64,000 bases of DNA from Mizuhopecten yessoensis (Eukaryota), in contig NW_018408322.1 in the NCBI RefSeq assembly GCF_002113885.1, positions 1,531,562 to 1,595,561 of the forward strand, written 5' to 3'. Shown piece by piece: positions 1,246 to 56,564 of this stretch. Position 1 is the stretch's first letter, and each line of letters begins with the position of its first letter. A model generated the notes under the pieces. The model made no database searches. It worked only from the letters and a program-made list of their open reading frames with translations, and was not told where the DNA came from. The translations under genes were made by a program, and so were the position numbers.

Positions 1246-2565
1246 TTCATATAACCGATATTCGCATTTCTCATGCTACCTTGTAATACGTTGCCTTGGT
1301 GTGTGTTTAAATAAAGATTTGTTGAATTGTATCACCTTTAGAGGATCGTACGTACTAAAAGTATATGAAAGATAAATCTGTTTTCAGCTGTCGTAATTTG
1401 ACTATTTGCTAAACGATATCGATTTGTCTTTTGTTTTGCAAATGAACGGAAAAGAAAACACTAAAAAACAAAAGAGCAAATGACTTTACACGAAAGGAAA
1501 CGGTGCCTTACATGGCCTACTAGGGAGTGAGTGAAAAGACGATTCACAGCCAGCACGACAGCGACATCGTTAACAGTGCATACTAGATTGTCAGTTTTGA
1601 GAAAACTGATCCTTAACAGAACTTCGCAATGTCACCCTGATGGTTGTTAATTATTTACGCAGGAAAGCATTATTCGATTAAATCTTTCCCCGTTCTGACT
1701 TAATTTCCCGAAATTAAACAAAGTAAAAAAACCAAAAAAAAACACATTCGGCCTTGTGAATGTTCAATCAATTATTTTCTACAAAACGTTTTATGAATAT
1801 TTTGTCATTATGACTATAGCTGTAAAATCGGAGACGAATCGTTATGGCATGATGCAATAGTTGTTTTTAAGTATTTGCTGTTTCGTATTTCTGTAAAACC
1901 AAGAAGCCTATGGGGACTGTATCGCTCACCTGAATATATATGCAATCTTATTAAAAAAAGATTAACATTATTATTGCAAAAACATAAATGGTTTCCAAGT
2001 TGTGAGTTAGGAACTAATTCCCTGTGTGTGTGGGCAAATCACTGTGCCCTCACTGGTATCCTATATATGCTGATATATGATTGTAAAAATGGTGATGGGG
2101 AATGGATCTCAACCATTCAAATTGATGGGAAAGGGACTAAGTCTTCATAAGTTGGGTAACAGCTGGAGGTCATTCTAGTATCACATGTGTATTAATCTCG
2201 TTGTACTCGGTAGCAATAAACATTGTTATAGGTCGGGGATATCAACCCTTTACAAGGTAATAAGTCTATGAGGCCAAATCCCTTAGCCCCGGAGACACCT
2301 CTTTAATTGGTACATTTTTGAATACCCAACAATGTGCACATAATATATTTGATATATATATATTATGAAAGTAACACAAACAGGTGTTTGCACATTTAAA
2401 ATTAAGTATTTAATAGAGTATGCGAAACAACAGATTATTAGCTGCATAAATTGGAACGGACAAGGAGTAACAAGAGATGTAACACGATGAAAAGGTATAT
2501 TATGGAGCAGTTTGGTTTGGTTTGGTATATAAGCTTAGTGTTCTTATAACAACTAAGAAATGTAA

Positions 2566-10774: not shown

Positions 10775-11797
10775 AGAAATAGAGGTTACACAACGAGTGG
10801 TTGTTGAATATTGTATTTATTTCACTCGAGTTGGTTAATTTTCAAAAGTTACAAATGATACGAGCTTTAGCGAGTGTCTTTTTTGTAACTTTTGAAAATT
10901 AACTAACGAGAGTGAAATCAATACCATACTCAACAACCACGAGTCGTGTGATCTGTTTCTACCACAATCTCATGATCAGTCGGAAAAAACATACACACGT
11001 GTATTTGTTGACAAGTCTGGCGTAGTGATATGACCCATATGTAAAAAGTCACTCATTAATATTCAAAAACAATTTCTTTTTTTTACAAATTCAATAATTG
11101 TCAAAATTAATGTTTCGGATACAACTTTATGAAAAAAAATATAATAGATGAACGACTTTAAATATTGAGAGTAGCCGAATCTCATTGATTTATATAAATT
11201 AACCACGGACTATATGCGCGTAAGCATATCGTACGAAGTCTGCCACATGCCAAGTGACGAACTTATCGCTGTCAATGTCCAAAACCATAGGCCTATGTTT
11301 CTTCTTGACGGTTCTATGGTTGACGTTTATAGTGAGGTTCAGCCATAGTCAGGCCGTCCAAATAGCGATAACGGGACGTTGGGAGAACGAAATATTTTCC
11401 GACACTGTGGCAGATCTTAATTTGTTTTGGTTTCACGACCTGGACACGCGACGGTGACGTCGAAATGATACCAATCGTCTGTAGCAATTTTGCCTGAAAC
11501 TAGCGATCGAATCTTTAAGTATCATCTTCTTTTAATATTGCCTTAATAACCCCCTTTTCCTCATAACCTCACAAAGTCACCAACATTTGTAGGATGTTGA
11601 TAGCAGACGACGAAAACAAAACAGCATGTGGCAAAAAGCATGTGGAAAAAGTAGTCCCGGTCAAAGTTCATCTTCTCGACCAATCAAAACTCTTGCAGGT
11701 CATATACCACGTGTGGTATATAACTCATATTTATCTAGCAGTCTGCGTGTTTATACAATGATCTGAGAGTGGAATAATACAGCGTATTGTGGTAGAA
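10775..11797. mobile_element. Non-autonomous Crypton-like element with terminal hairpin
   Basis: ~185-nt imperfect palindrome 10775-10960; TTCTACCACAAT (10957-10968) is inverted at the far end as ATTGTGGTAGAA (11786-11797); 4-bp AGAA direct repeat at both ends; CCAATCAAAAC motif near the right end. Superfamily is inferred from architecture only. Confidence 0.6.
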
Positions 11798-18154: not shown

Positions 18155-18770
18155 AAAACAAGAGGCCCAATGGGTCTGAATCGTTCACCTGGTAGAGTAT
18201 CAGTGTTCGATTCAAAAGAACCTATTAAAAGATTTAAACATATGACGCCCGATACCTTGAATGTTGAACAAGGACATTAGGTTGAACAGAGTTTATAGTC
18301 TTCCAACCCAGCATGCTTCTAGCAAAATATCTTTACCCTGGACCTTTTGGTTATACAGAACAAATCATTGAAAAATTTAAACATATATTGACCACTGAGA
18401 CCTTAAATATAATTCAAAGTCATTTATTTGAGCAAACTTGGTAGCCCTTTATCCCAGCATGTTACTGGCCAAATATCATCACCCTTTGCCGCTTTGTTAT
18501 TCAGGAGAAGTTGTTTAAAGATTTTAACATATTTGACCCCTGTGACCTTGAAAATGGATAAAGGTCATTTATTTGAACAAACTTGGTAGCCCTTCATCCT
18601 AGCTTGCTTCTGGCCAAATAGAATCACCCTAGGCCTTTTGATTACTGAGAAGAAGTTGTTTAAAGTAAACAGTTGACGCCGGACGGACGCCGGACGGACG
18701 ACGGACGCCGCACCATGCCATACATGTCTTCTGTAGGATATTTTTTAGAGATAGCTCATTGTTCCTAACA
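18155..18770. mobile_element. Helentron-associated non-autonomous element (HINE/pearl-like) with ~146-bp internal tandem array
   Basis: Begins AAAACAAGAGGCCCAATGGGTC..GTTCACCTGG; three ~146-bp units (..ACCTT at ~18254, 18400, 18545); (GGAC)n microsatellite 18680-18707. Right end eroded. Confidence 0.75.
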
Positions 18771-19258: not shown

Positions 19259-21492
19259 GAGGAAGACATGTCTGATAAACATTGTAATTTTCTTTCGCAG
19301 AATTTATATATTTATGTTTGCCTCGTGCAATTTCTGATAATAAGACTCCACGGTTTTTGAATATGTTCATGATAGGGCATATTTTGCTGTGGTCTGTTCC
19401 CGAATAATCAGACCTGATCTTTGCCCAAATGTAATAATTGATGCTAACTATTCTTCGGTGTTCTGTCCAACTATTTGCGTCGCTTTCGTTATGTTCTCTC
19501 TGTTTTTCAGGCATGTCAATGTAGTTATGGTACATACAAAAATGTGCATTTGTTCGATAAGACTTCAACTTAATCGCAACATTATCGCTCCACTGACATA
19601 ATAAATCGGTATGAGAAAAGAGAAGTGATGGATGTCGTTTGTTAGGGGTTTGCGTACTTGCAACAGCGTAGGTCATACAATATATACGTATTGTACCCAT
19701 TGATAGTGGATAGACATTAAAGCGACGTCTCACTGAGATGTAAATTAAGTTTATCATAAACACGATGGACATCATTCTGTATGTAAAATCTGACGATCTC
19801 AAATAATGCTGACATTATATGCGAAATTTAAACAAAAATATTATTACTACTATTCCTGAAATATATATCTTTTTAGTTATCTGTTACGGCATAAACAAAA
19901 TAGGACACTGTTAATGAAAAATGACGTACACATTTTAAGCAAAAATAAAGAGAACCAAATAAAAAGGGCAAAAATAAGAAAAAACGTTTGTTTATCTGGT
20001 CATTTCATTTCAACAAATTTTATTGCAAAAAATATGCAAAGGGACCTGATAGGGTATCAGACAAAGCCTATATAAGCCTTCTCCGAACAACTTCGGTATG
20101 TTATATGTACAGTCATTGACATCATCTGCTTATTGAACAGTATATGTTAACGAATTTTATACTATTAGATATAAGCTAATGTTGCCTTACGTTCGGTTTA
20201 CCAATGCCCGTTTGGTAACAGTTTAACTAATGCATAAAGGTGTTTCGAGGGCATTCGGCAAAAAGCAATCCGTTAGACGCTACCGATATATTTCATCAAC
20301 CATTGACAGAAATATTATTGGTCCATGTCTAATTCACTGTTAAGATAACCAATACAATTTCATTTCATACTGATTCATTTGATGTGAAAACTTAAGAAAT
20401 TGGTCAGCCGGTAAAAACCATGAAATCAGCATGGTACATAGGCGATCGACCATTATAATGCCAAAATATCATTTTCATATACATATATGGTCTACGTATA
20501 GCAATTTACTATACAAGTAAATGAATTAAATTCTGATGCGTCATGAACGTAATTTGAGAGAATGAAAACTTAATAGACGGTTATAAAGGCAGGTTCTATG
20601 CCATAACTGTCGTGTTCGTGTCTCAGAAAGAAAAAAAAAACGGAAGCAAAAATGGCGTAGGAAGATATGCAGATTATCTTCTCTAAATTCCGGTTAAATA
20701 ACGTATAAAAAGTAAGTATTATAAGTGTCTACTTTCAACCAACATAATACAATTAATAAACTATCAGGGATACTCTGAGAGAAACCGTGTCTGCATGGGG
20801 GCAGTGAATCGCCTCGGAGGATTGAAGATAATGAGATTATACGTCACTGTTGGACATGACAACTCACGTTCGTCCCACGCGCAGTCGGCGCCTTGGAACA
20901 GAAATACCGTTCGTGTTATGTCAGCACTTCTTGGCTGTGACTGCAAGTTGGGGGGAACATTGGAGTTGCATTTGTTCGTACCTATCATCTATTCAATTTA
21001 ATTCAATGAAGTAAAGTTGGGATCAGCATATAAATCCAACACAGAAAATATAACATGTGTGATATGGTGATTATTGACGTTATTTTTAAAAACAAGATAT
21101 TGCAGCAAGGAAAGTCGTTTAGGATAAGCAGGTTTGTAAGCCTTGATTAATTACAACCAATGGCAACTGAAAAAGCAATGATTCGTAAGCAAATCTTTGT
21201 TATAAAACGCAAGAACAATTGAACTATAATTGTTTTCACCCAAGTTGCATGTGTCAATTTTAGAATGTTGAAGGTATAATACTTTCGTCATCCAAATACA
21301 AGAAATATGTAATTGTGGATAAACCACATTACAGCTACATGTATGTAGTATATGAACATCACAAACTAAATACATCTGTCGATGACCAAGAAAACATACT
21401 TGAATCATGCAACAGATCACGCTTTTTGCATAAAATAAATACATTCGTCAACAAATATAGTAAAATAAAATCCCGCCAATTTAAAGTTTATT

Positions 21493-22608
21493 AAGAAATA
21501 ATCAACATAATGTGCGTGCATTATGGTGCAATATATAACGAGGGTGAGAAAATGTTTGCAACTTTTTCGAATGCCGAGTTATATATTCCACAATAATACA
21601 CGCACATAAGTTGATTATTTTTATTCTACCAAGTCAAATGTAACTAGTTGTCAAGTTTTGTTGTCTTATAAGGCGACATGACCTAGATAATTCGATATGC
21701 AAATTAGACGCTGTTCTTTTGCGCGTGCAAGGGACTGGTCTCTGGGGCGTGTGTCCGAGTCACATTACCTGTCGCGCACATAGCAGTAACTGGGGGGCTT
21801 ACAGGGCTAACATGTTCGAATTCACTGAAGGAGGCAATGGCTTCGTCATCCTCCTGACTACCCCAGGGACGTATATTGTCCTCTGGTGTATCGTCCAAAA
21901 GCTGGTGAAGAAAAGCCCGCCTGGTTTCGCCACTGTACATAGACCTCACCACAAATTGTTTGGCAAATTGAGGATTTGGTTGGTGAAAGTCCACAACCCG
22001 ACACAGTTCCCCACAATAAAACACCCTGTCTCTGATTTTTGGTCGTAATACCAAGGAACTTGAACTTGAAGCCATGTTGATTTTTTGAAAGCAGAAGACG
22101 TTTTGCTGACCAGAAACAACTGAACACGTGTAACGTCAGATACGATGTTTATTTCAATCAATCAAACATTGGCACGCTATCGACATCGTTCGTCAAATTA
22201 TGAAATCAACGCTTGGCAGTACATACACACACTGCACACATCGTGAAATGTACGGCACTACCCAGTGAAGTAAAAACAGAAGTAATTAATAATCTACCAT
22301 TTTTTCTTCAGACCTGTACATTTTAAATGTCAATAATTAATAAACCATTTTCACTGCAGGGACCCACATACTTTAGGTCGATAGATCCGTGTAATCTTAT
22401 GAATGGCAGGTCTGTCAGATATTTTAATCCCGCCTGACAGTTATGCTATTTTCGTTAATTCATGATAAAATACGTGGAGGTTGTTGGAACAGCATGCGTG
22501 CGCACTATTTCACATGCATTGGTTATTGGCACGCGCATGGTAAATCGCTCAATAATGCACTCTTTTTAACCAATGAAAACCGTCGTTACATCACAGACGT
22601 GGTAGAAT
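21493..22608 (-). mobile_element. Internally deleted Crypton-like element with terminal hairpin
   Basis: Imperfect palindrome 21496-21620; ATTCTACCA (21623-21631) is inverted at the far end as TGGTAGAAT (22600-22608); ACCAATGAAAAC near that end; retains a truncated minus-strand ORF. Same layout as 10775-11797. Confidence 0.6.
21704..22075 (-). pseudogene. Truncated N-terminal ORF of the Crypton-like element (123 aa)
   Basis: ATG-initiated and GC-richer than its flanks. Beta-strand-like segment (IRDRVFYCGELCRVVDF...FVVRSMYSGETRRAFLHQL) followed by an acidic/Pro-rich linker. Lies wholly inside the element; no recombinase domain remains. Confidence 0.5.
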
Positions 22609-22949
22609 TCCCCATATACGCCGTAAGCGTTGATGGAGAAAACTGCATTGGTTAAATCTGTATGTTAAGGAGTATAATTTTTGTCTCAGAAATGTGTAAT
22701 CTCAGTTTGTTTGAGGAGGCCATTGTAATAATATTTGATATAATTTCTATATGTTATGTCTCATATGTGTCTATATGATGTGTTATAACATACTTTATTT
22801 AAATGACAACATTTGAACATTGAACAAGGTACTTGTTTAGGAATTTCGAAAAGAGTGTGTTTCCAGACGATTATTTGTATTTCAAAGCGACATTCAAAAT
22901 ATGTACCTCTCTTGATATAGTACGTTCATGTATATATATGCTCTATTTT

Positions 22950-24392: not shown

Positions 24393-25343
24393 AAAATTGA
24401 TTACACGTACACACGGAATACTTATAATAACTTGCAGCACTGGTTGTGGGGAAACCTTCAATGTTGCACATCTTGGTTTAGTGGCGGAGTTTGCCAACCC
24501 CCACTAAGGCTTATGGCCACCAACTAATGTATTTGTTTTACTTTATATATGATAATGCTATGCTGTACTTGTCAGATGTTTGACATCGTCATGTTTGGGT
24601 ATTATTTGTTTGAAAATATATTAAAAGTCACCAAACGGTGACCTTTTTCACTCATATGTTCTTTTGGTTGTTTATGTGACAGGACGGAAAGTGCATAAAA
24701 GGCAGCTAAGCACTTAGCTTAATTTATGCATCTGGAGTCGTGCACATAACCACTTTATTTGAATAAATAAAATTAAGAAAAATAGGTTTCGAAGAGTTGT
24801 CTCCCATGCATAAAAGCTAGGGATAGGAAGAGTTACTCGCCTTGAATTAAGAGCCGAGGATTGTGGGTAATCTGCATTGAGCGCGCCATTGAGAAAATTT
24901 GTAAACAGCGCGCCATTGAGAAAATTTATAAACAAAAAGGTCACACAGTGCAAAACTATTGTGTTAACCATTCTAAGTACAGACCTAGTCTGGTATACCT
25001 TCCGAAGTTTTTAACCCACCCACTTCCTCCCCTCTTCTTCTTTGTGAGAAATGCATTTTAACACAATATCTAAGTGGCGGAGTTTGCCAACCCCCACTAA
25101 GGCTTATGGCCACCAACTAATGTATTTGTTTTACTTTATATATGATAATGCTATGCTGTACTTGTCAGATGTTTGACATCGTCATGTTTGGGTATTATTT
25201 GTTTGAAAATATATTAAAAGTCACCAAACGGTGACCTTTTTCACTCATATGTTCTTTTGGTTGTTAATGTGACAGGACGGAAAGTGCATAAAATTGATTA
25301 CACGTACACACGGAATACTTATAATAAATTGCAGCACTGGTTG
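24393..25343. repeat. Nested direct duplication A-B-core-B-A
   Basis: B (~221 bp) at 24480-24700 and 25073-25293 with 1 mismatch seen; A (~53 bp) at 24393-24445 and ~25290-25343 with 1 mismatch; 27-bp tandem duplication at 24880-24933. Confidence 0.9.
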
Positions 25344-46422: not shown

Positions 46423-49310
46423 TAGCTTAAAGAGAGCAACAGTGACATTAACGTTGATCTTTGGACCTTACTTCTTAACATTCGTAGTAACCTTTGATTA
46501 GTATCTGTTAAGAAAAGAAGCTGGCAGAGCTGTAACAAAGAATGACGTCGGGAGGCGCCAGGTCTGATGTGAATACTGCTGTACGCCCGATGGGAAAACA
46601 AGTTGATGCATCAGACATACATTGCATATCACCAACTGTAGCGAATGTACATTTACATTGATGCAATATTTCTATATTTCCAAAATCGTTTCAATGTCGA
46701 AATAAAAGCCATTTATAATGTACATTCACCTTATGGAGTACCTTAAATAGCATTCTGGAGAAAAATAAAAATGAAGGTTTTTACTACAATGCACCTCCTT
46801 AGCTGGATATTAAAGGGTTGCTTAGAGAAAGGGGAAAATTGCGTGATTAGGGTAAAGCCAGTTAGGACCGAAGCTATTCTCCGAAAATGGCTTGAACACG
46901 TGTTTTGAATGAAAACCGCCGAACGCCGCATTACGACAACAAGGAGCCCCACTGTAACCTAAATTAACACGGCCGTTGAGACTCTCCAAAAGGAAATGAG
47001 GAAGGGGATAACACGGAGAAACATTAATGGTGAATCCTCACATCTTCAATGTTATAGAACGATACCAGTTAGTCGCGGTCAGGTCAGTTCCGAGATCACA
47101 AGGTCATGTGGATGTATGCTATTCATGTGAACTATCTATAAATAATTCAAGCTTTTGAATAATTAAATGATTACGTTTGCAGTCTCTGATCATGCCTAAA
47201 TTCTCCATACGTTTTCTTTCATGTCGACAGCTATATAATATTGATTTTATGTATGTGATTTTATTTAAACCCATTAGGTACAAAGGCTATGATAAGGTAT
47301 ACGTTCTATGTACACGTCAGGCTAGCCAAACCAAAAGTAAAGCGTTGTGTATGCTATCATGCTTTTAGAACAGACGACCCCAAAAATACAATGACAAACA
47401 GATACAAACCCGAAACATGATATGATAAATTAGATCATGGCAAAATATCCATAAATAGTACTTAACAAATATCACAAAAAGCGGCGTTTTTTTCTATTCG
47501 GACTGAATCATAAACAGGAAACGCACAACCAGCACATATGATTTTTGAACACATACAAACAGACTCACAGCGTAAGATCAGGGTCGGATTTGCCAACATC
47601 ATGCTATTCTTTCACTGCTTACATGCAATTGCGAGATAAGTAGAGGTGAAACGGGTTTAACCCACCTGTGTGTAAAAACCATGCCCTCTGGCGCCAGTAA
47701 GGCCGCTTTGGCATTGAACATCATTCACACGAAACCGAAACATCAATAGATCGGAAACTTGGCTATGTGTCAAAAATTATTTTCAAAAGTTTTAAAATCA
47801 TACTCGGTTTATATCCTCACGTATAGTGTGTCTATATTTGTCGCGACCTTTCGCGTGACATGATGCTATTATAGTTTTCCCATATCACATTCTTTATGTG
47901 AAATAAATTGGAATGTTTGATGTCTGCCTTGATGCAATTGTGATTATCTGGTCTTAGCCAACATAAAAACGTGCCAGTTTATAGGGTTCTAGATCTGAGT
48001 CGGACGAAGATACTTGATTTGGGTGTACAAATTACCTGTACGGTTTATTTGTTTAGAGTTTTACGTTATGATGGATTGAAATAAGGGACCACTTAAAACT
48101 GCCATGTCACTGAAATGTCATAAATTCAACAAGGAAGCATGATACAAATTACAGAGGTACGATTCTTAGCAACCGCCGAGAATCAAGATACTAAGAAAGT
48201 TTTTTGCAGTGCTTTGAATTATAAATTACATATTCATACAGTGAAATAAGAATCGGTATTTCAAGTTAACTCAACAACATCTGTGACGGAAGGTATATCC
48301 AACAAATTTTAATATCTTATAAAAGCCCATAGAAAAAGGAGACATTAACTGGGACACCTGCAGGAATGTTTTCCACGACATCTGCTTTGTACAAAAATCT
48401 GTAGGTGCCAGGGAATGGAAATATTTTATATGCCGGCAGCTTTACCTCTCAAACTCATAAATAAATGGTTTACAAGATATTAAAGTGGTCAGTTTGACAT
48501 TTGACCCTTTAACCTTGACAGATGACCACCAAAAGCTGATCAGCTATCGAGCTCAATGTTACCATACTATGATACATGAATATATACATGTAGGGCTCGT
48601 GAGATATATACTATATGCCTCTCTGTAATTGGAGGTACATTTAGAGGCGGCCGCCAAATAAAATATTTTCATTTCGTGGCACCTACGGGTTTCCGTAGCT
48701 TCGGAGCACCCACGGAGAATTCGCAGTTCTTTACGTAGTACTTGCTATTCTGTCATCTGGATCACTATATATAATAACAAATGTTTTAATGTCCATCGCA
48801 CCTGAATCACTGTTCTTTTTATACGTGAATGGGATCCTTCTAATGCATGCTGTACAGTAACACCTTTGTCCAGAGAAATATTTGAATGGTAAAGAGGTTG
48901 AGCGATATATTAAGAGAAAAATAATTTCTAAGAAAAGTACTTAGAAATTGGTTTGTGGCTAAGCAAGAATGTACAGAACCCGTTTCTTGAATTATATATA
49001 TGAAAAGACAGATCAAACTAATATAATGACAGCATACTTTAAGATCAGTAAATGTAACGCTACCTATCTATATGTAGTGACACAAAATTAGAATTATATG
49101 ACATTTTACTTCCCCTTGTATCTTAGTTGAAATGGAACTGTGCGCAAGGTGATATGTGGGCATCTTAACTAACTCCGATTCATTTGCATCGGGCAACCGC
49201 AAACATTGCTATCCACTAAATTATATGTTCAGGAGGACTCGCGGAGTACCCACGAATATTTGAGATAACACAGTACAGCATAACATTTGATCGCACGGAA
49301 CTGTATATGA

Positions 49311-55693: not shown

Positions 55694-56564
55694 AACAAAA
55701 GGCCCAGAGAGCTTTATCTTTCACCTGGATATATGTTTAAAGTAAAGCGGTCAATTTGTTTTAATGATTAGATCCTTATAGTAACAGGCACTACAAAACA
55801 ACTTGATGAAGACGACATTTGGATAAAATCTTGAATCCCTATTGTAGTAGAAGGATTTCAACGGTTCTACCTCTATTCCCATATTGGGCCCCATCCATCT
55901 GCCCCCAGGGGGGCAACAACTACCGTTTATACAAAACTGAGTCCCCTTGGATCAAGGATGCTCCAGACTAAATAAGAATAAAATCACGTTTCGCTATGGT
56001 AGGAGAAGGATTTTAAAGGTTTTACCTCTATTTCCCTTATTTGGCCCCGCTTCTCTGCCCCGAGTAGAACCACACCCTCCTTTATACAATAGTAAGTGTC
56101 GTTTGCCTAAGGATACTTCAGACCAAATTGGAATAAAATCCATAAATCCCTGTGGCAGAAGAAGGATTTTAAAGGTTTTCCTCTATTTTCCCTATTTGGC
56201 CTTACCGCTCCGACCCCCGTGGGGCCACACCTACCGTTTACACAAAACTGAGTCCCCTTGGACCAAGGATGCTCCAAACTAAATAAGAATAACATCCTTA
56301 ATCCCTATGTTAGAAGAAGGATTTTAAAGGTTTTACCTCTATTTCCCCTATTAGGCCTGGCCCTACTGCCCCCAGTGCGGCCATACCCAACGTTCATACA
56401 GAATTGAGTGCCCTCGACCCAAGAGTGTTCCCGACCAAATGTAGTAAAAATCTACTGGGTTGTTCAGGACTAGTGTTTTAAAGGAAAAGTTGACGGACGG
56501 ACGGACGGACGACGGACGCTTCGCCATGGCATAAGCTCACTTTTCCGTCGGGCAGGTGCGCTTA
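55694..56564. mobile_element. Helentron-associated non-autonomous element (HINE) with ~155-bp tandem array
   Basis: Begins AACAAAAGGCCC..TTCACCTGG; units start GGATTT..AGGTTTTACCTCTATT at ~55853, 56009, 56164, 56319; (GGAC)n 56492-56518; terminal stem TAAGCTCAC...CAGGTGCGCTTA. Confidence 0.85.

Follow-up and report, generated by a model that had tools for sequence, protein, structure and literature searches.

The window, that is, the whole stretch of 64,000 nucleotides of Mizuhopecten yessoensis DNA analysed here, holds two mobile elements of different sequence and like end design. A preliminary description of this DNA proposed that a hairpin with tandem G-A mismatches, together with an internal reverse copy of the joined element ends, is a cis structure of a whole superfamily and has a fixed strand polarity. 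This raises the question of how far the layout extends, which strand it marks, and what it can tell us about the way in which such elements move. We address it by starting from the second element of the window (element 2, Table 1).

Element 2 and its recombinase relatives

Element 2 is a member of a repeat family (family 2) with 656 candidates in the 988-Mb genome; 40 of the 656 were scored, and the best full-length copies are 88-93% identical. The element is real as first described, but its limits have shifted. Flank statistics place the start at 21491 and not at 21493, and the end at 22607, with 22608 belonging to the target. In public contigs, these limits are marked by a depth step together with loose ends, ahead of 21491 and past 22608/22609. 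For element 1, the genome contains 874 candidates, and both ends of this element are shared with recombinase family G. The CCAAT..AAAC motif that was said to be shared by the two elements is indeed present in both (22570 and 11680). The octamer TGGTAGAA is present as well, but its frequency in the window does not exceed chance (5 matches against 2.59 expected, with 10 of 100 shuffles as high). At L092:3790-4000, a stretch of family 2 with short open frames lies between the gene remnant and the hairpin, and this stretch is retained in a commoner non-autonomous subfamily of family 2 (153 candidates).

Table 1. Positions of the two elements, of the parts of element 2 and of its target in the window
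Feature	Position	Strand	Remarks
Element 2, putative non-autonomous Crypton-type element	21491..22607	+ (strand starting with the hairpin)	sharp common ends in family copies; depth step in public contigs
Spacer of 7 bases at the hairpin end	21491..21497	+	T21492 and G21495 predicted unpaired after end joining; equal length in families A-J
Long hairpin, inner arm ATAATC first	21498..21618	+	tip partly deleted in the window copy
Two tandem G-A loops	21539..21578	+	21540-41 with 21576-77; 21546-47 with 21569-70
Internal reverse copy of the end junction	21613..21631	+	inner-arm partner 21613-18, 5-base spacer 21619-23, far-end partner 21624-31
Recombinase gene, truncated 5' part, 123 aa	21704..22075	-	cut by an internal deletion
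CCAAT..AAAC motif	22570..22580	+	also in element 1; upstream of the recombinase frame
Far end TGGTAGAA, outer arm of the joined site	22600..22607	+	
Target, left half	21488..21490	+	TAW in the family; TTA at this locus, TAA in the empty allele
Target, right part: 6-base spacer and ATA	22608..22616	+	
Element 1, non-autonomous relative of recombinase family G with like end design	10779..11797	+	both ends 72-80% identical to L158

No frame of the window has a Pfam match. A search of the genome for DUF3504 gave 383 candidates, of which 150 were scored and 60 loci were fetched by score and frame length, i.e., non-randomly. Together with L093 and L095, these 60 loci fall into 10 multi-copy families (A-J), the L093/L095 pair and 6 singletons. 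The frame of element 2 is 48% identical over 85 aa to that of its sister L095, which has a similar far end and an internal copy and arm matching those of element 2 at 81% over 53 bases. L095 carries a whole but broken recombinase gene with HxxR, GH and Y, and its middle exon matches family F (E 2e-06). The frame of a further relative, L241, clears the DUF3504 cut-off (37.1 against 29.7 bits). Longer copies of family 2 (L063, L065, L066) extend further, through the first recombinase helix, where they align with the beginning of DUF3504 recombinases, to a GT donor. Direct BLAST of the family-2 N-terminus against families B and F gave no significant match, and a PDB sequence search returned QRICH1 as its sole match; no relationship to IntI emerged.

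Intact partners above the DUF3504 cut-off are found in families A, B, D, E and F (5/5); in family B, an intact recombinase of 506 aa is encoded at L104:862-2379. HxxR, GH and Y align in 7 recombinase rows, with Q or T for H in A, E and F, and the first catalytic R aligns in all 5 rows that cover that region; element 2 itself is without the catalytic part. The partner elements are 2.2-2.9 kb long and occur as interspersed copies with sharp ends. GT donors break the frame at an equal place in several G and H copies, which points to introns. Neither a reverse transcriptase nor a DDE transposase was seen by eye in the frames of 11 representatives, or by Pfam on 5. Family 2 yielded no intact autonomous copy (42/42 candidates scored; 12 extended regions), and a search with the internal stretch of the family gave none either (40 of 153 scored, 25 loci fetched). 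The Crypton-type assignment of the window elements made in the preliminary description is borne out by the DUF3504-type partners and by the sister gene. Thus, element 2 is very probably of Crypton type, and to judge from these sequence relationships it is a non-autonomous derivative of a CryptonA-type DNA transposon with a DUF3504 tyrosine recombinase.

The end design in ten multi-copy families

In 10 of the 10 multi-copy families, there is a hairpin at one end of the element with a reverse copy of the family's own far end at the hairpin foot. The layout is therefore common well beyond the two window elements, and the idea of a superfamily-wide cis structure stands for all ten families, its scope being this one genome. 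The far-end copy is 8-15 bases long, a length reached in at most 8 of 300 shuffles for nine families; for family J, the match to the junction is weak, as 47 of 300 shuffles reach its length. The copy varies in step with each family's own far end. The pair TTCTACCA/TGGTAGAA, which was offered as a motif of the superfamily, turned out to be family-specific, with other far ends reading TGTGATAA, TATAATAA, TTTTAA, TGGGAGAA and TAAATAT. Because the pair is not superfamily-wide, a genome scan based on it would miss most families.

The reverse copy of the end junction within element 2 is real. Because the element spans 21491-22607, its joined ends read TGGTAGAA-TTAAGAA-ATAATC, against TGGTAGAA-TAAAA-ATAATC in the internal copy. 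Hence, when the ends are joined, a 7-base spacer lies opposite 5 bases and two bases, T21492 and G21495, are predicted to be unpaired. When the window ends are joined in silico, the predicted stem grows to include the far end, and the folding energy falls to -41.6 kcal/mol, from -32.9 kcal/mol in the genomic context. The joined-end spacer, read by eye, is 7 bases in families A-J, and the internal-copy spacer is 5 bases in 60 of 62 copies. Within family 2 the latter is 5 in 17 of 23 copies, and the other 6 read as mis-anchored or inverted. For the clade of element 2, 20 of 98 matches were taken as further regions; L241, which is among them, has the 7-against-5 spacing. In the L248 family, L258 and the L094 hairpin, the spacing reads better as 6-against-5.

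The predicted end junction has one occurrence in the genome, in an old sister element that is 68-69% identical. No circle junctions were found among the listed public-contig joints for this locus and family B, and such contigs drop rare forms. In L037 and L213, a far end directly meets a hairpin end, either that of another element or the element's own; in L037 (about 1490-1520, minus strand), a family-G far end abuts the start of element 1. These joints suggest stacking at old far ends, resembling a cassette array. A tandem dimer at L213 was considered and rejected: since the hairpin does not recur within 5 kb, we read it as a single junction.

The hairpin at 21496-21620 and its motifs read exactly as first reported, and the hairpin beats shuffles on both strands (z about -9; 0/200 shuffles). 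In an arm-to-arm alignment, both of the tandem G-A pairs claimed for the window copy are in register, forming GA/GA loops 43 and 49 from the inner arm; in fuller family-2 copies, the loops are mostly at 42 and 48, with a third at 75. The second pair is missing from the minimum-energy fold of the window copy because part of the hairpin tip has been lost. Tandem G-A pairs are stable in DNA. Among two-base hairpin loops (n=125), 91 are GA/GA and 3 are TC/TC on the hairpin-first strand, where orientation was set by the element ends alone and copies within one family are not independent. Counted per copy, 49 are GA-rich, 2 are reversed and 11 are ties. In family 2, 13 of 23 copies tie, mostly through deleted hairpins. 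Across families, the distances of the G-A loops from the arm cluster around 10 and within 41-45 and 65-77 bases. Tandem G-A is nevertheless not a universal trait, as family I has none; the loops of family F are visible but absent from the count because its hairpins are rearranged.

Folding energy was rejected as proof of strand choice. With ViennaRNA DNA energies, the G-A strand of the window copy is not favoured (-32.2 against -33.6 kcal/mol), and in the fuller family-2 copies it is favoured by only 1.7-3.1 kcal/mol in 6 of 8, with the order reversed in 2. The hairpin interior is inverted in L014, L015 and L029 (of 22 rows) and in L188, and the outer ends keep their orientation. In L040, L044 and L051, partly, the interior is inverted or one arm is converted, again with the outer-end orientation unchanged.

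A fixed strand polarity does exist, but it is set by the ends of the element and not by the open reading frame, to which it had been tied. Relative to the G-A strand, the gene runs antisense in families A, B, C, F, G and I and in both window elements, and sense in D, E, H and J. Families E and F are sister recombinases (tree support 91/92). Their genes align plus/plus and both of their ends plus/minus, so the gene has been inverted between the ends. In the recombinase tree, which holds sequences of this genome only, one branch forces at least 2 orientation changes. Because of these changes and the E/F inversion, the rule that the G-A strand is antisense to the frame fails, and we rejected a polarity fixed against the frame (6 versus 4 families). 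What is invariant across families is that the G-A strand is the strand beginning with the hairpin.

A few loci stand apart. The copies L172-L179 (family I) are divergent and have a 90-base internal direct repeat near both ends. About 2 kb downstream of a family-2 relative, at L094:4480-4790, there is another 5' fragment of a recombinase gene, which has a long hairpin of its own; elements of this sort occur in clusters. Recombinase-like matches at L205/L250 and L259 lie within open frames of 948 and 998 aa, and these are possibly fused or domesticated genes.

Insertion at a short palindromic target

The target is a palindrome, TAW^N6-WTA, and insertion takes place at its left edge, with the hairpin end at 5'. 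Insertions of family 2 read TAW ^ T-N5 WTA. In the left flank, -3 is T in 30/30 and -2 is A in 27/30; in the right flank, +1 is T in 43/45, +8 is T in 45/45 and +9 is A in 41/45, all of these counts including one mis-anchored row (L237) and L019 twice. The same signal is found when eleven other families are pooled (-2 A in 66/72, +8 T in 57/72). Positions 2-6 of the target spacer vary. A terminal direct repeat of 4, 6 or 8 bases is seen in 0/30 family-2 flanks. Gap-free empty sites are available for L018 and L225 and, within tandem arrays, for families F and G and element 1. The terminal direct repeats of 4-6 bases that distinguish CryptonF and CryptonS are accordingly not found in these flanks and empty sites.

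The locus of element 2 has an empty allele in 3 of 4 public runs (small-share runs X15-X19 were left out), with the target TAA ^ 6 bases ATA. The empty and filled alleles differ in about 10 bases left of the site, and many nearby sites differ too. The empty allele thus fits a clean insertion, though not perfectly to the base.

In families E, F and I, the element starts with T in 16/16 and the first right-flank base is A in 12/16, a base that the internal copy can pair. In families D, H and J, the first flank base matches the internal copy in 1/9. A 1-base duplication of T was rejected, because the element start and the first flank base differ in E, F and I. Long target duplications were also rejected as a rule, since 6 of 83 flank pairs match (5 older tandem arrays and 1 unique; control 1/300). 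At L104 / L135:5474-7673 (family B), there is a unique 50-base flank duplication, and four public runs show the empty allele with one copy. This duplication may be a rare repair product or an assembly artefact.

A proposed folded single-strand route and its alternatives

Tyrosine recombinases cut each strand at the 5' edge of the spacer. Combined with a crossover at the left spacer edge, this makes the hairpin-first strand the one that would be exchanged. By analogy with known folded sites, we consider it reasonably probable that one strand of the element, with its ends joined, folds into a duplex recombination site and is exchanged with the double-stranded target by a single strand swap. The hairpin-first strand would be freed, e.g., during replication, and the internal copy would splint the far end beside the hairpin end. 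The folded junction would then present two arms flanking a bulged spacer, and the recombinase, supplied in trans, would cut, at the left edge of the spacer, both the hairpin-first strand and the corresponding strand of TAW-N6-WTA. Beyond their first base, the spacers of element and target differ, and because of this no second exchange would follow; replication would resolve the junction. The G-A loops, at their three recurrent distances from the arm (about 10, 41-45 and 65-77 bases), may serve to stabilise the active strand or to label it. Pairing of the incoming target strand with the internal copy should make the first target base follow that copy, as it does in E, F and I. Counting against this single-strand model are the weak energetic strand bias, family I without G-A loops, the inverted hairpin interiors, family J and the 6-against-5 cases, and also the seldom matching first flank base in D, H and J, the 50-base flank duplication in family B, the imperfect fit of the empty allele, the negative result for circle junctions among the listed contig joints and that for an intact autonomous copy of family 2.

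Known recombination sites offer both likenesses and differences. Tyrosine-recombinase sites consist of two inverted arms around 6-8 bases (PMC3212892), and cuts at the spacer borders leave a 3'-phosphotyrosine and a free 5' end (PMC3458562, PMC3442271). The attC site of integrons, used by IntI (PMC3458562), is likewise an imperfect hairpin of similar size with an unpaired spacer, extra bases on one strand and a one-strand polarity, and a single exchange resolved by replication, as at attC, is what would be expected from the insertion pattern of our elements. Unlike attC, the site described here needs both element ends and the internal copy, each family has an enzyme of its own, and the stem carries tandem G-A loops. 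In the CTX phage, attP(+) is formed when two inverted site copies fold on one strand with unpaired spacer bases, XerC/D act on it, and missing spacer homology blocks the second exchange (PMC3442271). That phage depends on enzymes of its host, has dif as its one fixed target and packages a single-stranded genome, whereas here the target is a short degenerate palindrome. The imperfect fold, the unpaired spacer and the strand-specific extra bases of such folded sites are all present in our elements as computed features. On balance we lean slightly towards the view that animal CryptonA may be the eukaryotic counterpart of integron cassettes and the CTX phage, with one folded strand that is internally splinted and read by its shape (7-against-5, G-A), leaving the orientation of the gene free.

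CryptonA elements, as portrayed in PMC3212892, PMC5753468 and PMC13465315, resemble those studied here in having a single DUF3504 tyrosine-recombinase gene and abundant non-autonomous derivatives, without classical terminal inverted repeats or target duplication. Animal Cryptons are reported there to be without terminal repeats, and fungal ones to have terminal direct repeats of 4-6 bases and a circular model (PMC3212892, Kojima and Jurka 2011). The elements here differ in their asymmetric ends (hairpin, G-A loops, junction copy) and palindromic target, with no direct repeats. A 2026 review describes Crypton transposition as being without experimental demonstration and assumes a double-stranded circle (PMC13565253). 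In this textbook route, the circle would integrate through two exchanges, and the hairpin and copy would act as a cruciform, as an extra binding site or in circle replication. Besides being the published Crypton model (PMC3212892, PMC13565253), it would accommodate a window copy without energetic strand bias, a family I without G-A loops and the inverted interiors that occur. We regard it as unlikely all the same, since a pair of exchanges ought to require matching spacers and to generate short direct repeats, yet no such repeats are seen and spacer positions 2-6 vary. In addition, a symmetric cruciform leaves the 91 to 3 loop polarity and the constant 7-against-5 bulge unexplained.

DIRS-1 is also a tyrosine-recombinase element, and it has an internal, adjacent reverse copy of both outer ends, a region required for its transposition (PMC7192593). 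By the same logic, the copy in our elements could template or splint cDNA ends, with a reverse transcriptase acting in trans, before a double-stranded circle integrates. An internal complementary region is found in 10/10 families, but it is short and bulged: the 88-base region of DIRS-1 is exactly complementary and comes with a reverse transcriptase and inverted LTRs (PMC7192593), whereas the copy here has about 19 bases, keeps its bulge and continues a long hairpin, and no such gene was seen. In the 2.2-2.9 kb partners, no reverse transcriptase/RNase H and no inverted LTRs were seen; their plus-strand frames read as recombinase only (Pfam on 5). Furthermore, the GT donors that interrupt the frame at the same place in several G/H copies suggest introns, the gene is found in either orientation, and a repair template should match the junction exactly, yet the 2-base bulge is kept. 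For these reasons, a DIRS-like route appears quite improbable.

Fold-back template switching at element ends might instead have produced the hairpin and mirror copy as functionless by-products. Such products are visible in single copies (L040, L153, L154), and many family-2 hairpins are deleted. This origin is very hard to reconcile with CGAG facing CGAG, which is two transversions from a perfect repeat per loop, with loops at like positions in families of different sequence, and with a junction copy that changes along with each family's own far end. We give equally little credence to movement by an HUH enzyme (Helitron-, IS200/605- or rolling-hairpin-like) with the recombinase gene as a passenger, although the subterminal hairpin, the lack of duplication and the inverted hairpin interiors would suit it. 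All 10 multi-copy families surround a DUF3504 recombinase gene, in a sample that began from recombinase genes, and a two-fold target whose spacer measures 6 bases is in keeping with a tyrosine recombinase.

We found no published description of this end design in a search that covered the main texts of mainly the open literature. To our knowledge, the single-strand route would, if true, be the first such tyrosine-recombinase mechanism in eukaryotic transposons. The main texts of PMC5753468 and PMC13465315 do not contain the word "hairpin" (0 occurrences each), and neither does the text searched for PMC3212892 (0 occurrences). The exact ends, the target rule and the foldable junction provide short DNA substrates for direct tests, and near-identical young families with intact genes are present in this genome. 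If true, the single-strand route would also give an end-finding rule for annotating such elements, and would suggest insertion without duplication at a short target. The domesticated DUF3504 domains of ZMYM, QRICH1 and KCTD1 would then descend from a folded-single-strand recombinase.

The window also holds other repeats. Short tandem arrays of about 155 and 146 bases lie at 55825-56440 and 18242-18665; the first resembles a satellite of the kind carried by Helitron-related elements. At 48390-48697, two inverted 51-base copies stand 206 bases apart and show neither the G-A loops nor the junction copy; they probably belong to a MITE. An exact 221-base direct repeat occupies 24480-24700 and 25073-25293, 593 bases apart.
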